NCBI GenBank assembly: GCA_036387915.1
Contig: DASVSV010000315.1
Span: forward strand, 1-60,062
DNA length: 60,062 nt
Source: Thermoanaerobaculia bacterium
GTDB lineage: Bacteria; Acidobacteriota; Thermoanaerobaculia; Gp7-AA8
Reading direction: 5' to 3'
Shown here: positions 22,655 through 37,060 of the stretch, piece after piece
How positions within the stretch are numbered: the first letter of the stretch is position 1
Layout: every line of letters starts with the position of its first letter
Program-made: the position numbers and the translations under genes
The notes under the pieces: generated by a model
Database searches by the model: none
Seen by the model: the letters and a program-made list of their open reading frames with translations, nothing else
Told to the model about the DNA's origin: nothing

Positions 22655-22728
22655 AGCTCGCAGCTCGCAGCTCGCAGCTCTCAGGATCGGGTGGACTCCT
22701 GAGAGCTGAGAGCTGAGAGCTGCCAGCT
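22655..22728. repeat. AGCTNNC-heptamer hairpin, copy 1 (rpsD stop to rpoA spacer)
   Basis: Left arm AGCTCGC x3, AGCTCTC, AGGA. Loop TCGGGTGGAC. Right arm TCCT, GAGAGCT x3, GCCAGCT. Confidence 0.9.
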
Positions 22729-22737
22729 CAGGTTGAA

Positions 22738-23364
22738 TTACTTCGAGTAGAGCTCGACGATGAGCTGTTCCTGAATCGGGAGACGGATGTCTTCGCGCTT
22801 CGGGAGATCCGTGACAGAGCCACGGAACGCATCCGGCTCGAGCTGGAGCCAGGCGGGGACGCCGCGGCCGGCGGCCGTCTCGACGGCCTGACGGATCTGG
22901 TCGTTCTTGCGGCTCTTTTCCCGGACCTGGATGACGTCGCCCTTGCGTACCTGGTACGAGGGGACGTTGATCTTGCGGCCGTTGACCTCGATGTGGCCGT
23001 GCCGGACGAGCTGGCGGGCCTGGGGCCGCGAGGCGGCGAAGCCGAGGGAGTAGACCACGTTGTCGAGCCGGAGCTCGAGCTGGCGGAGCAGGTTGTCACC
23101 GGTGACGCCGGTCCGCTTGGCGGCGCGCTGGAAGTAGAGCCGGAACTGGCTCTCGAGCAGGCCGTAAATGCGCTTCACTTTCTGTTTTTCACGAAGCTGC
23201 ACGCCGTAGCCGAGGACCTTGGAACGGCGGCGGCCATGCTGGCCGGGCGCGTAGTTGCGGCGCTCGATGGCGCACTTGTCCTTGAAGCAACGATCGCCTT
23301 TGAGAAACAGCTTCATTCCCTCGCGACGGCAAAGCCGGCAGACGGGGTCGGTGTAACGAGCCAC
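22738..23364 (-). CDS. rpsD: 30S ribosomal protein S4
   Basis: [26 protein letters not shown]... Confidence 0.97.
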
Positions 23365-23445
23365 TATGCCTCCTGGTTGTTCGCACCCGCATCACCATGA
23401 TGCGTTGCGTATACGCCGGCTGCTGCTCGGCGTAACTTTCTTACT

Positions 23446-23516
23446 AGCTCTCAGCTCTCAGCTGGCAGGCCCGCACACCCTCGGATTGACTCTCCTGAGA
23501 GCTGCGAGCTGACAGC
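23446..23516. repeat. AGCTNNC-heptamer hairpin, copy 2 (rpsK stop to rpsD spacer)
   Basis: Left arm AGCTCTC AGCTCTC AGCTGGC AGG. Loop starts CCCGCAC. Right arm CCT GAGAGCT GCGAGCT GACAGC. Confidence 0.85.
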
Positions 23517-23528
23517 CGACAACTCGTA

Positions 23529-23942
23529 TCAGACGCGGCGGCGCTTGGGCGGCCGGCAGCCGTTGTGGGGGATGGGCGTCACGTCCTTGATCGACTTGAT
23601 GTCGAGGCCGGACGCCGCCAGGGCGCGGATGGCCGACTCGCGGCCGGCGCCGGGGCCTTTGACCTTGACGTCGACCGAGCGGATGCCGTGCTCCTGCGCG
23701 AGCTGGGCGGCATTCTGGGCCGCGACCTGGGCCGCGAAGGGCGTGCCCTTGCGCGATCCCTTGAAACCGATGCGGCCGGCGCTCGACCACGACAGGATGT
23801 TGCCCATCGGATCGGTGATCGCCACGATCGTGTTGTTGAACGTCGCCGCAATCGAGGCGACGCCGTGCGGAACGTTCTTCCGCTCCTTGCGCTTGGTACC
23901 GGCGCGACGCGCGCCCGCTTTCGGTGCTCTTGCAGTTGCCAT
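23529..23942 (-). CDS. rpsK: 30S ribosomal protein S11
   Basis: [18 protein letters not shown]...[13 protein letters not shown]. Confidence 0.97.
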
Positions 23943-23946
23943 GGTT

Positions 23947-24030
23947 AGCTCTCAGCTCCCAGCTCGCAGCTCTCAGGCCCGCCCCGCCCCAGGATGTCTC
24001 CTGAGACCTGCGAGCTGACAGCTGCCAGCT
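23947..24030. repeat. AGCTNNC-heptamer hairpin, copy 3 (abuts the rpsM stop codon)
   Basis: Left arm AGCTCTC AGCTCCC AGCTCGC AGCTCTC AGG. Loop CCCGCCCCGCCCC.... Right arm CCT GAGACCT GCGAGCT GACAGCT GCCAGCT. Confidence 0.9.
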
Positions 24031-24413
24031 TATTTCTTCGTTGCTTTCTTCTTGCCGGCAACCGCACCCTTGCGGGGGCCCTTGCGCGTGCGGGCGTTGG
24101 TGTGCGTCCGCTGTCCGCGCACCGGGAGGCCACGGCGATGGCGCATGCCGCGGTAGCAGTTGATTTCCATCAGCCGCTTGATGTCCAGGCCGATGTCCTT
24201 GCGGAGATCGCCCTCGACCTTGCCTTCGTCGGTGATGATCGTGCGGATCTTGCGAACGTCATCCTCGGTGAGGTCCTTGACGCGGACGTTCTTGTCCACG
24301 CCGGCCTGCGTGAGGATGTCGTTCGACCGCGTGCGGCCGATGCCGTAGATGTACGTCAGGCCGATTTCGACCCGCTTGTTCAGTGGAAGATCCACACCCG
24401 AGATACGTGCCAT
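24030..24413 (-). CDS. rpsM: 30S ribosomal protein S13
   Basis: [26 protein letters not shown]. Confidence 0.97.
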
Positions 24414-24430
24414 TTGCCTGTTGCTCCTGA

Positions 24431-34432: not shown

Positions 34433-35256
34433 TACTTGGTTCTCCGCTTGACGATGAACTTGTTCGTCTGCTTGTTGCGACGGGTCTTGTAGCCCTTGGT
34501 CGGCTGACCCCACGGGGAGACCGGATGACGGCCGCCGGAGGTCTTGCCTTCACCGCCGCCCAGCGGGTGATCGACAGGGTTCATCGAGACGCCGCGGTTG
34601 TGAGGCTTCTTGCCGAGGTGGCGCGTGCGGCCGGCCTTGCCGATGGACACGTTCTCGTGCTCGAGGTTGCCCACCTGGCCGATGGTGGCGTAGCAGCGCA
34701 CGTGCACCTTGCGCATCTCGCCCGAGGGGAGACGGAGCGTGGCCCAGTCGCCCTCGCGGGCCATGAGCTGCGCGCCGGCGCCGGCGGAACGGACCATCTG
34801 TCCGCCCTTGCCTTCCTTCAGCTCGACGTTGTGGATGACCGTGCCGAGGGGGATCTTCGTCAGGGGGAGCGCATTGCCCACCAGGATGTCGGCTTCCTCA
34901 CCGGACACGATGGTCGTGCCGACGGCCAGGCCGTTCGGCGCGAGGATGTAGCGCTTCTCGCCGTCCACGTAATGCAGGAGGGCGATGTGCGCGCTGCGGT
35001 TCGGATCGTACTCGATGGCAGCGACCTTCGCGGGGATGCCGCGCTTGTCGCGCTTGAAGTCGATCTCACGATACTTCTGCTTGTGGCCGCCGCCGATGAA
35101 GCGGGACGTGATGCGGCCCTTGCTGTTGCGGCCACCCGTCTTCGGCTTTCCCTTGGTCAGCGACTTCTCGGGCGTCGACTTGGTGATGTCGTTGAACGAG
35201 GCGTGCGTCTGAAACCGGATGCCGGGGGAGGTCGGCTTATATCTGTTCGTAGCCAT
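34432..35256 (-). CDS. rplB: 50S ribosomal protein L2
   Basis: GGGHKQKYR...[12 protein letters not shown]. Confidence 0.97.
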
Positions 35257-35284
35257 AGTGTTCTTTCTTTATCGGCTGTTTACA

Positions 35285-35362
35285 GGGACGAGGTATGAGG
35301 GATGAGGGATGAGTGGCGCTCCGCGCTTTACTCGTGCCTCATGCCTCGTTCCTCATACCTGT
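35285..35362. repeat. NAYGAGG-heptamer hairpin (rplW stop to rplB spacer)
   Basis: Left arm GACGAGG TATGAGG GATGAGG GATGAG. 17-nt loop. Right arm CTCGTGC CTCATGC CTCGTTC CTCATAC CTGT. Confidence 0.9.
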
Positions 35363-35365
35363 GTG

Positions 35366-35656
35366 TTACACGCCTTCGACGAACTCGGGCGCCTTTTCGC
35401 CTGCCTTGAGCCGGACGTAAGCCTTGCGCCAGTCGCGGCGCTTGCCGACCCAGCGGCCCATGCGTTTCATTTTTCCGCGAACGTTGAAGAGGCGGACCTC
35501 TTCGACCTTCACCTTGAACAGTTCCTCGACGGCCTTCTTGACCTCGATCTTGTTCGCGTGCGGATCCACTTCGAAGGCGATGACGTTGCCGTCCTCGCGG
35601 AGGATGGTGGACTTCTCGGTGACCAGAGGCCGGCGGATGATCTGATTAGCGTTCAT
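35366..35656 (-). CDS. rplW: 50S ribosomal protein L23
   Basis: IIRRPLVTEKS...FEVDPHANKIEVKKAVEELF. Confidence 0.95.
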   Translation of the reverse strand: MNANQIIRRPLVTEKSTILREDGNVIAFEVDPHANKIEVKKAVEELFKVKVEEVRLFNVRGKMKRMGRWVGKRRDWRKAYVRLKAGEKAPEFVEGV

Positions 35657-36278
35657 TGCTGAGGGCCTCCGTCAGACGATCGAGCGCGGCCTGGCTCAGG
35701 ACGATGTAGCGGCTGTTGACGACGTCGTAGACGTTCACGTGGAGCGCGTCGACGAAGTTCAGCTTGGGGTTGTTGCGCGAGGCGAGCACCGCGTTGGTGT
35801 TCTCCATGGTGTCGATGAGAAGAGCCTTCCCCTCCACGCCGATGGTCGCGATCTTCTGCGCGAAGGTCTTGGTCTTCACTTCGTCGACGGCCATGCTGTC
35901 GACGATGACGAGCTTCCCTTCCTTCACGCGCTGGGAGAGAGCCGACTTGAGGGCGGCCTTCTTCTCTCTGGTGTTCATCTTGTACGAGTAGTCGCGCGGG
36001 CGGGGGCCGAAGACCGTGCCGCCGTGGCGGTGGATCGGCGGACGGGCGCCACCCTGACGGGCGCGGCCGGTGCCCTTCTGGCGGAACGGCTTCTTGCCGG
36101 AGCCGCTGACTTCCGAGCGGACCTTGGTGCTGTGCGTTCCCTGGCGCAGTCCGGCCAGGTAGTTGCGCACTGCCTCATGGACGAGATGCTCCTTGTACGG
36201 GTACGCGAAGATCTCTTCCGGCAGGTCCACCGAGCGGAGGGTTTTGTTGTTCCAGTCTTTGACGTCAATGGTCGGCAT
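35646..36278 (-). CDS. rplD: 50S ribosomal protein L4
   Basis: Start [30 protein letters not shown]. Confidence 0.95.
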
Positions 36279-36279
36279 G

Positions 36280-36921
36280 TTACTCACCCCGCTTTCCGTT
36301 TTTGGCAAGGCGGACGTAAACGAGGCCATTCCGGGCACCGGGGACGGCGCCGCGGATGTAGAGCAGGTTGTTCTCGATGTCGACCTTCGCGATGCGGAGG
36401 TTCTTGACCGTGACCTGATCGCCGCCCATGCGTCCGGCCATGCGCATGCCCTTCATGACACGCGAGGGGAACGCGGAGGCGCCGATGGAGCCGGGCGCGC
36501 GGTGGAACATCGAGCCGTGCGACTCGCGGCCGCCGGCGAAGCCGTGGCGGCGGACGACGCCCTGAAAGCCCTTGCCCTTCGATTGCCCGATGACGTCGAT
36601 CGAGTCGCCGGGCTTGAACATGTCGGCCGTGACGCGGTCGCCCACGTTCGCCTCGCCCGAGTACGGGACTTCGGCGAGCGTCTTGAGCGGCTGCACGCCG
36701 GCCTTCTCGAAATGCCCGCGCATCGCGCTGGTGACGCGGCGGTTCGAGACTTTCTCGACCAGTCCGATCTGCACGGCGTCGTAGCCGTCCTTGTCGGCGG
36801 TCTTCTTCTGGACGACGAAGCAGGGGCCGGCCTGGACGACCGTCACCGGAACGAGTGCCCCGTCCTCGGCGAACACCTGGGTCATCCCGACCTTCTTGCC
36901 AATGATTCCTTCGATTGCCAT
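36280..36921 (-). CDS. rplC: 50S ribosomal protein L3
   Basis: [13 protein letters not shown]...[14 protein letters not shown]. Confidence 0.97.
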
Positions 36922-36980
36922 TTGTCTTTGTCTTTCACCTTGGAAACGGATCGCTCCGTTTCGTGTGTCTCGTGCCGAGC

Positions 36981-37060
36981 AGCTCGCAGCTCTCAGCTCT
37001 CAGCCCGCAGGACCCGCCCGCCCGCATCTCCTCAGAGCTGCGGGCCGCGAGTTGCGAGCT
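36981..37060. repeat. AGCTNNC-heptamer hairpin, copy 5 (overlaps the rpsJ stop; rpsJ-rplC spacer)
   Basis: Left arm AGCTCGC AGCTCTC AGCTCTC AGCCCGC AGG. Loop ACCCGCCCGCCCGC.... Right arm CCT CAGAGCT GCGGGCC GCGAGTT GCGAGCT. A separate 8-bp hairpin, GAAACGGA-TCGC-TCCGTTTC, follows at 36944-36963. Confidence 0.85.

Follow-up and report, generated by a model that had tools for sequence, protein, structure and literature searches.

A stretch of 60,062 nucleotides (nt) from contig DASVSV010000315.1 of a Thermoanaerobaculia bacterium (assembly GCA_036387915.1), here called "the window", carries the str-S10-spc-alpha ribosomal gene cluster on its minus strand, from rpsL (~41.9 kb) to rplQ (21.1 kb). 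The contig is identical to JGI 3300034008 Ga0334942_000047 and ENA ERZ27253105 k141_95128, and its S4 protein is 86-95% identical to proteins of metagenome-assembled genomes named Thermoanaerobaculia/Acidobacteriota by NCBI. Cluster genes were identified from open reading frames (ORFs) and Pfam names. Their junctions mostly measure −11 to 31 nt; seven measure 87-164 nt, and each of those seven holds a long hairpin. In five of the seven, the hairpin is built from tandem heptamers of the form AGCTNNC, and it is this AGCT element, most likely a DNA repeat akin to repetitive extragenic palindromes (REP) and miniature inverted-repeat transposable elements (MITEs), that we describe here.

A profile hidden Markov model built from 109 metagenome copies of the element finds five copies, and nothing else, on the two strands of the 60 kb, with E values from 3e-18 to 1e-10, and all five match the profile over its full length (positions 2-82 of 83). 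All are read here on the minus strand, downstream of rpsD, rpsK, rpsM, rpsC and rpsJ. Copy 1 (22654..22729; E 3e-18) lies in the 105-nt rpsD-rpoA spacer and is predicted to fold at −59.5 kcal/mol (z −7.1); in the sense RNA the TAA stop is followed by 8 nt, (AGCUNNC)4 AGG, a 12-nt loop and CCU (GNNAGCU)4, and the Shine-Dalgarno (SD) sequence GAGGAGG stands outside the stem. Copy 2 (23445..23524; E 2e-13; −42.7 kcal/mol, z −3.7), in the 164-nt rpsK-rpsD spacer, begins right at the TGA stop and has a separately conserved rpsD leader on its 3′ side. In the 87-nt rpsM-rpsK spacer, the TAA stop overlaps the first AGCT of copy 3 (23946..24031; E 2e-15; −58.4 kcal/mol, z −5.7), the stem ends 4 nt before the rpsK ATG, and the last GAGAG unit occupies the expected SD position; locus L190 holds a near-identical orthologous copy. 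Copy 4 (32990..33070; E 8e-13; −52.7 kcal/mol, z −4.8) begins 6 nt after the TAG stop in the 106-nt rpsC-rplP spacer, with the SD AGGAGA outside the stem, and has an orthologous copy in L189. Copy 5 (36980..37061; E 1e-10; −54.8 kcal/mol, z −3.2), in the 137-nt rpsJ-rplC spacer, is the most decayed of the five; here the TAG stop overlaps the first AGCT, and L172, L194 and L223 carry copies at the same junction.

These observations bear out the initial annotation of this DNA, which had placed five hairpins at these coordinates, named the same upstream cistrons and pointed to their stop-codon proximity: the stems begin −3 to 8 nt from the stops. The five sense-strand RNA folds, at −43 to −60 kcal/mol, are also more stable than dinucleotide-shuffled controls (z = −3.2 to −7.1), a comparison that the annotation had proposed. 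Tandem Repeats Finder reports period 7 with 2.6-4.6 copies in every arm of the five hairpins, and (AGCTNNC)x2AGCT occurs 14 times in the window compared with none in 100 shuffles. The architecture proposed for all copies, three or four AGCTNNC units then AGG, and CCT then GNNAGCT units, needs one amendment, as the apex of copy 4 reads GGC/GCC instead of AGG/CCT. The CCCGC(C) loop motif ascribed to copies 2-5 is present there.

A dispersed family of AGCT palindromes

Two scans delimit the family. Species-representative genomes were searched with (AGCTNNC)3AG, and metagenome contigs with (AGCTNNC)3AGG-N8-30-CCTGAGA, a pattern of the window type that fixes 25 bases and matches three of the five window copies; each scan yielded at least 120 loci. 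A pattern of 25 fixed bases matching at least 120 metagenome loci marks a genuine element family and not a chance resemblance. Among the genome matches listed, 56 of 120 loci belong to Acidobacteriota and the others are scattered over many phyla; the narrow apex pattern is absent from these 120 loci, and the genomes named there carry broader AGCTNTC arrays.

When 109 distinct metagenome copies are aligned on the apex, each arm has exactly four heptamers, and conservation stops 31 nt from the apex on both sides. A CAGCT core is 85-100% conserved, and each heptamer has two free positions. The loop, 8-30 nt long, often contains GAGAACC..GGGTGGGCGGG or its reverse complement, and the element as a whole, (AGCTNNC)4-AGG, loop, CCT-(GNNAGCT)4, measures ~75-90 bp. 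The array copy number is thus fixed at four units per arm in this family; loci L001-L003 are identical to the window, so they show no strain variation. The sharp four-unit ends, the conserved apex and the loop motif recur across many taxa and therefore speak for shared descent, not independent birth. Single samples contain many copies on different long contigs, from which it follows that the element is dispersed genome-wide; one such sample also contains L190, the near-identical relative of the window. Together, the AGCT hairpins form a discrete non-coding palindromic family, dispersed in soil Acidobacteriota genomes.

The annotation had recognised no named element in these hairpins, and none has come to light. 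Rfam 15 gives no matches in the window at the gathering score, and at E<=10 the interval 22600-24060 gives only generic miRNA-precursor-like matches, on both strands, at 16-34 bits against cut-offs of 48-110. The literature searched contains nothing specific on the repeat sequence or on REP-like elements of Acidobacteria. The specific family, with its 4+4 anatomy and loop motif, its stop/start geometry and its bias toward ribosomal operons, appears undescribed; the general heptamer-repeat phenomenon has been noticed before and has never been explained.

The positions of the copies follow clear rules. Gene context was called with a GC3-based gene caller and checked against known ribosomal-protein (r-protein) genes; some of its calls are wrong, as the tRNA-tRNA and infA-L36 sites were scored divergent and the L009 sites inside a gene. 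Among the metagenome matches listed, to which the counts in this paragraph refer, 99 copies can be classified: 76 lie in co-directional spacers, 14 in divergent and 5 in convergent ones, and 4 inside called ORFs. Against a background junction mix of 70/15/15% (co-directional/divergent/convergent) the convergent spacers are depleted (5 copies, ~14 expected). In the 76 co-directional spacers the distance from stop codon to element has a median of 3 nt and is <=12 nt in 63, with the TAG stop overlapping the first AGCT in 22; the distance from element to start codon has a median of 10 nt and is <=12 nt in 44. TAG stops are somewhat over-represented (27/51 compared with 37% in the background, p = 0.015), an effect that is modest and that we do not take as target specificity. 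Within the window, copies 1, 3 and 4 share this stop- and start-abutting geometry, and copies 2 and 5 have extra sequence before the start.

The r-protein cluster contains 21 of the 120 metagenome loci (22 elements), at 12 junctions: S12-S7, fusA-tuf, S10-L3, S3-L16, L14-L24, L24-L5, L6-L18, L30-L15, infA-L36, S13-S11, S11-S4 and S4-rpoA. In the genome scan it contains 5 of the 120 loci listed. The metagenome count corresponds to a ~20-fold enrichment, on the estimate that the cluster makes up ~1% of genome junctions. The suggestion that the element has colonised intercistronic sites of highly expressed operons is therefore well founded. Other copies adjoin infC-rpmI, yceD-rpmF, dnaK-dnaJ, nuo genes, Rieske/cytochrome b genes, secE and two tRNA genes; a DUF1385-like gene/prfA recurs in five loci and accB-accC in four. 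In L140/L146 a full element stands between two tRNA genes, right after the ..CTCCACCA 3′ end of one and 5 nt before the other.

The arms are also polarised. Two-armed AGCT elements read 5′-(AGCTNYC)n..(GRNAGCT)n-3′ in 21 cases (type A) and the opposite way in one (type B). One-armed arrays follow the same rule, those of AGCTNYC abutting stop codons (12/15 within 14 nt) and those of GRNAGCT abutting start codons. Because the element is strand-symmetric, its purine arm, (CUGAGAG)n, adjoins the downstream start in either direction of insertion. This arm contains an SD-like GAGAG as well as TGA in all three reading frames.

Two loci, both on short metagenome contigs, have a gene order that is impossible for the cluster and that switches exactly at the element: L160 (map-infA-element-rplX-rplE) and L223 (rpsJ-element-rplC fragment-rpsJ). 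The AGCT repeat probably causes chimeric assemblies of ribosomal operons.

Arm pairing, turnover and readings at the RNA level

A structured RNA that might tune r-protein stoichiometry was among the annotation's leading ideas, and it proposed to look for compensatory changes and for presence in orthologous spacers. Neither expectation is borne out. The variable positions of the two arms pair in 56-64% of cases, compared with ~58% for independent arms and 47-75% for controls shifted in register by +/-7, and thus the arms show no covariation. There is no excess of G:U pairs on the sense strand (G:T 59, A:C 68), and sense folds are not significantly more stable than antisense ones (32 against 25, p = 0.10). 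The single loop orientation noted for the annotated copies holds within the window; family-wide, the sense strand carries the G-rich form of the loop motif in 26 copies and the C-rich form in 22, and the motif is flipped between the orthologous sites L196 and L200. The order of units is mirrored between the arms with a small excess (0.7 nt, p = 1e-4), in a test that unit phasing makes too crude to carry weight here.

Orthologous sites are not conserved either. In relatives whose S4 is 90-95% identical, the corresponding junctions are empty or hold a decayed copy or a hairpin of different heptamers. At S4-rpoA, both L132 and L134 retain an orthologue of copy 1 that has decayed, relative to which copy 1 is homogenised; an ~80-nt heptamer hairpin present in L134 is missing from L132; and the S13-S11 spacer, which holds copy 3 in the window, measures 13-39 nt and has no element in L004, L006, L008, L132 and L134. 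A terminator scan of 21000-38700 detects no U-tract after the hairpins at any of the five minus-strand sites, where the tails read UUUCACGCG, AGUAAGAAAG, AACCAUG and the like, and a promoter scan detects none at the elements. The lack of covariation, strand bias and U-tracts, together with the turnover, therefore argues against a dedicated regulatory RNA and against terminators. We favour the view that the element is maintained and turned over at the DNA level, as copies appear, vanish, degenerate and change orientation from one close relative to another.

It follows that a cis-regulatory RNA, bound by r-proteins for autoregulation or stoichiometry, is very improbable, even though all five window copies occupy spacers between r-protein cluster genes and the cluster is enriched in members of the family. 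Besides lacking covariation, conservation at orthologous junctions and any Rfam match, the element has no fixed orientation, and the same element occurs at 12 r-protein junctions, in many non-ribosomal operons and in tRNA spacers; furthermore, the conserved leader just 3′ of copy 2 is a better candidate for S4 control. We give still less credence to an intrinsic terminator or attenuator within the operons. The hairpins are strong and GC-rich, but none of the five has a U-tract on the sense strand, they are flanked by essential co-transcribed genes, and convergent gene ends are depleted of copies. The sole terminator- or attenuator-like site on the cluster sense strand is a 10-bp GC-rich stem (GGGGGCGGGC..GCCCGCCCC) with a weak T-rich tail on its 3′ side, at 37404-37428 (minus) in the tuf-rpsJ spacer.

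The leader itself occupies 23365-23445 upstream of rpsD and reads, on the sense strand, TACGGCGAGCAGCAGCCGCCGTA..ACGCAACG..CCATGGTGG..GCGGGTGCGAACA..AGGAGGCA. It is kept in L004, L006, L008, L009, L132, L134, L135 and L136, with L011 as the exception, and the hairpins adjoining it come and go among the relatives. It has no Rfam match and is a candidate S4 autoregulatory leader.

Stabilisation of upstream mRNA by REP and RNase III processing at intercistronic sites of T7 are established, and a stem of ~30 bp could in principle serve as an RNase III site, as in T7 early mRNA, or as a barrier to 3′ exonucleases, as REP and bacterial interspersed mosaic elements (BIMEs) do, so that polycistronic r-protein mRNA would be split into segments of different half-life. 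The long, nearly perfect stems (−40 to −60 kcal/mol), the absence of a terminator tail on their 3′ side, and the location of most copies in co-directional spacers of long, highly expressed operons, and of others between tRNA genes that need processing, are all consistent with this reading. However, there is no strand signature of selection at the RNA level, divergent spacers also hold copies, and sites turn over between close relatives. As the purpose of the element we find RNA processing or stability unlikely; it is compatible with the explanation we prefer, developed below, and the two may operate together.

Hairpins of the same build with other repeat units

A combination of Tandem Repeats Finder and an inverted-repeat search reveals hairpins of the same build that the annotation had overlooked. 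Two of them occupy the remaining long spacers with hairpins in the cluster. In the rplF-rplR spacer, a hairpin with ~four TGGTTNC heptamers per arm (29401-29475, minus strand) begins at the TAG stop, and the AGCT profile gives no match to it. The rplW-rplB spacer contains a hairpin with four GGNANGA heptamers per arm (35284-35360, minus strand; −40.5 kcal/mol, z −6.1), 3 nt after TAA. Outside the cluster, a near-perfect hairpin of 10-mers, (AGTTCCTCGG)4 and its inverse (13878-13974, plus strand; −86 kcal/mol, z −12), takes up the gap that separates an aldehyde dehydrogenase gene (stop 13872) from a glutamine-synthetase-like gene (ATG 13979), 5 nt after the TGA and 3 nt before the ATG. Its 5′ arm units carry the anti-SD-like UCCUC and its 3′ arm units the SD-like GAGGA, so that it shows the same stop/start logic as the AGCT element more plainly.

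Nine related r-protein loci, taken via S4 homologues, have the same kind of hairpin at other junctions and with other heptamers: CGATGAA in L004; GGATTGA, CGGTTGT and CCNGTTG in L006; three TNGGTTK-like units in L009; GGCAGTA in L134; GTGCTGA, twice, in L135; and GGCAGAK, twice, in L136. Among non-coding tandem repeats, a period of 7 prevails in each set of loci. Canonical heptamer units number 310, the modal array has four copies, and 45% of heptamer arrays are accompanied by an inverted counterpart no more than 110 nt away, compared with 4% in the control. The AGCT family is therefore one case of a wider, known class, hairpins with about four tandem heptamers per arm; the annotation had left it unplaced, and it fits the heptameric tandem-repeat arrays and inverted pairs already in the literature (PMC4692102, PMC2700814, PMC4679880).

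Might such arrays simply be neutral DNA, grown in place by polymerase slippage, made palindromic by template switching, and neither functional nor mobile? The intergenic DNA of bacteria is known to contain an excess of heptameric repeats, for which polymerase slippage is a proposed source (PMC4692102). The dominance of period 7, the 310 different units, the variation of units between close relatives and sites, and remnants such as GCTGAGAGCTAA at infA-L36 in L132 and L134, where L004 has a full element, all agree with this. Against it stand the sharp ends of the AGCT family at four units per arm, the conserved apex and the loop motif common to many taxa, the restriction of variation to two of seven positions, the polarity of 21 to 1, the ~20-fold enrichment in the r-protein cluster among the matches listed, and the frequency of inverse partners (45%, 4% in the control). 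We consider slippage an improbable account.

The main alternative to the explanation we prefer invokes a protein that would recognise CAGCT at intervals of 7 nt, although its probability is likewise low. Here the element would be an array of eight CAGCT pentamers, four per strand, bound by a symmetric oligomer or by a single-strand-binding protein, each domain of which would take up one heptamer; a nucleoid protein or global regulator, or a recombinase or transposase that moves the element, would be candidates, and the hairpin would be a by-product. Such a reading accommodates the conserved core and the two spacer positions that vary freely without covariation, the strand symmetry of the element and its lack of bias relative to transcription, its presence in all spacer types, divergent ones included, and the fixed number of four units. 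Indeed, inverted pairs of three to five tandem 7-9-mers in Geobacter metallireducens have been read in the same way (PMC2700814), and cold-shock proteins bind one heptamer per domain (PMC4679880). However, the reader protein is purely hypothetical, and sites spaced every 7 bp do not keep step with the turn of the DNA helix. Furthermore, 310 canonical units share the architecture, which one reader protein cannot explain, and neither the excess in r-protein operons nor the tight fit between stop and start would be predicted.

Other palindromes occupy ribosomal spacers in the relatives. A second family, GTCATCCTGAG(C/G)..GAAGGATC plus inverse, is found in L6-L18, L24-L5 and S13-S11 spacers (L008, L136) and in other Acidobacteria loci (L046, L049), with one half-copy-like stretch at 46283-46310 of the window; a third, GGACAGGCA..TGCCTGTCC, stands at the L6-L18, S13-S11 and S4-rpoA junctions of L135. 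The ribosomal spacers of this lineage thus draw several unrelated palindromes.

Elsewhere in the window, a further hairpin of this build, an inverted repeat of 11/22-nt units (GCCGGCATTCTGCCGGCC..) at 48673-48779, with 47-nt arms that are 87% complementary, apparently lies between two minus-strand ORFs (~48785-49864 and <=48672), and each of its units is a small palindrome in its own right. One-armed heptamer arrays outside the cluster are TGAGCGA x3.9 (46212-46238), CCTGCCC x3.7 (53307-53334) and CTTTTAC x4.3 (55183-55212); no inverted partner was detected for these three. An inverted repeat at 3563-3705, with 43-nt arms that are 98% complementary and 57 nt apart, is not built from tandem units. 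Within the cluster, the rpsG-fusA spacer (40776-41014) stands out by its length of 239 nt but contains no repeat hairpin, and the one tRNA-Trp call by ARAGORN at 40035-40127 (plus strand, 93 nt), antisense within the fusA coding region, is probably a false positive.

Proposed translational coupling and relation to known systems

The explanation we prefer, to which we attach about even confidence as a whole, is that the AGCT element is a REP/MITE-like DNA repeat that survives just after a stop codon and ahead of the next start, where it would enforce translational coupling. The palindromic repeat occupies a single slot almost exclusively, after the stop codon and before the next ribosome-binding site, and its purine arm would supply both the SD-like GAGAG and TGA stops in three frames. 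On the polycistronic mRNA, the hairpin (−40 to −60 kcal/mol) would place the downstream start beside the upstream stop and would bury the downstream SD, often its own GAGAG, in most copies. Free 30S subunits would thereby be excluded from the downstream cistron, and a ribosome ending the upstream cistron would melt the base of the stem, allowing downstream translation through RNA unfolding or re-initiation. Both coupling models are established, and hairpin cases such as f1 genes VII/IX and rpmI-rplT are among them (PMC12548453). The stem could in addition block 3′ exonucleases or be cut by RNase III. The ~20-fold excess in ribosomal-protein and translation operons is proposed to arise from the coupling effect or from insertion linked to transcription. 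Judged from the geometry of the copies, the element probably couples the translation of neighbouring genes.

Several points weigh against this explanation. The coupling step is deduced from sequence and position, and purifying selection acting on insertions in short spacers accounts just as well for the stop/start position, without the cell gaining anything: stop proximity is also expected of any insert into a 10-30 nt operon spacer that keeps the SD near the start codon. Copies also lie in some divergent spacers and between tRNA genes, where coupling cannot apply; GAGAG matches the anti-SD sequence weakly; and pairing at the variable positions shows no detectable selection, in covariation or in G:U excess. 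The polarity is not universal, as other heptamer families place the pyrimidine arm beside the start, for example the rplW-rplB element, which is oriented in the opposite way and has a separate spacer before the start. As for mobility, no transposase or other means of spread turned up, in an analysis that included no search aimed at a RAYT (REP-associated tyrosine transposase) or insertion-sequence partner, and no recurrent flanking direct repeat was found among 51 unique co-directional and the five window copies. The enrichment estimate rests on the matches listed and on the assumed ~1% share of junctions. Finally, the 7-nt period and the four-unit rule remain unexplained by it.

The delimitation of the family has consequences beyond this locus. 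A repeat family that is abundant in a major, poorly studied soil phylum now has a name and defined limits; it is absent from Rfam, its sequence was not found in the literature searched, and it probably breaks or chimerises metagenome assemblies at ribosomal operons, which are markers for binning and phylogeny. The r-protein operons rank with the most compact and best-conserved gene arrays known; that seven of ~33 junctions in one genome are widened by 75-100-nt hairpins, which differ in close relatives, shows that their spacers can be highly dynamic. The geometry suggests a testable route by which a selfish palindrome could become harmless or useful, namely coupling through a 5′ arm that abuts the stop and an SD-like 3′ arm. 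The family also ties the excess of four-unit heptamer arrays in several phyla to a concrete case with clear positional rules. A more speculative extension, which we regard as quite unlikely, is that heptamer-array hairpins are both product and substrate of a dedicated system, and that Acidobacteria use the AGCT module, portable and independent of orientation, for obligatory coupling and fixed stoichiometry at ribosomal and other high-expression operon junctions. Such a system might be a protein that recognises nucleic-acid units in fours, spaced 7 nt apart, or an enzyme that writes four-unit arrays and their inverse; if true, it would explain the four-unit heptamer excess in Xanthomonas, cyanobacteria, Geobacter and Beggiatoaceae.

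The closest structural parallels are the heptamer arrays. GGGAATC arrays in Xanthomonas, mostly of four units and sometimes inverted, and GGGGA(T/C)T arrays in Nostoc were described by Rehm et al. (2015; PMC4692102), and MacGregor (2015; PMC4679880) reported arrays of TAACTGA, placed next to start codons, from Beggiatoaceae, cyanobacteria and Bacteroidetes. These arrays, which include the cyanobacterial short tandemly repeated repetitive (STRR) sequences, resemble the AGCT family in their period of 7 nt, in lying between genes, in a degenerate unit of which some positions are fixed and others free, in mostly having about four units, often abutting start or stop codons and forming some inverted pairs, and in the variation of length and sequence between close relatives. 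The AGCT family differs from them in being a palindrome fixed at 4+4 units, whose apex and loop motif are conserved, and not a length-variable direct array, in its unit (AGCTNNC), its host (Acidobacteriota) and its arms, which lack G-quadruplex potential. Its bias toward r-protein and translation operons was not reported for the earlier arrays. In Geobacter metallireducens, paired "global regulator binding sites" such as MTYCTGA x5 between proB and proA (Aklujkar et al., 2009; PMC2700814) likewise consist of two opposite-strand arrays of short units with a variable spacer, in tens of copies per genome at intergenic and intercistronic sites. Unlike the AGCT family, they are read as IHF/HU-type DNA sites; their units and host are unrelated, and no ribosomal-operon bias, stop/start geometry or loop motif is described for them.

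REP and BIMEs of Enterobacteria and Pseudomonas, and the GTAG/CGTC-tagged REP (Di Nocera et al., 2013; PMC3733652), are, like the AGCT element, short dispersed extragenic palindromes that often lie between co-transcribed genes. In the transcript they fold into hairpins that influence mRNA stability, to which the predicted mRNA hairpin of the AGCT element corresponds. A REP within ~15 nt of a stop codon reportedly also affects translation of the upstream gene, an effect ascribed to work by Liang, Rudd and Deutscher in 2015. REP are simple palindromes of 20-40 bp that are tagged by GTAG or CGTC and paired with a cognate RAYT transposase, and identity with REP was rejected on both size and tag. 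The AGCT element measures 75-90 bp with 31-nt arms of tandem heptamers, and four positions outside the arms are near random across 109 copies; the base before the first AGCT is T in 32/109 and A in 31/109, so that a GTAG overlapping the first AGCT can occur in a minority only. No RAYT is known to go with the AGCT element.

MITEs such as Correia, ERIC, RUP and SMAG share with it the form of a small non-coding dispersed inverted repeat, presence that differs between relatives, co-transcription with flanking genes, and assembly breaks or chimeras, of which L160 and L223 are probable cases. The AGCT element departs from them in that the entire element is one hairpin of tandem units, and the flanks, as described above, have no MITE-type target-site duplication. 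We know of no parent insertion sequence with the ends of the AGCT element.

With regard to the proposed function, hairpins that mask ribosome-binding sites (f1 VII/IX, MS2 coat-lysis/replicase, E. coli rpmI-rplT and r-protein operons; PMC12548453) have a stem that runs from the upstream stop to the downstream ribosome-binding site, as the AGCT stem does, and the same dependence on the upstream ribosome is predicted for the AGCT element. Those hairpins are unique and locally evolved, whereas the AGCT element would be a portable, orientation-independent repeat serving many junctions. Together, these comparisons place the AGCT element with the heptamer arrays and the Geobacter pairs by architecture, and with REP/BIME and the MITEs by behaviour.

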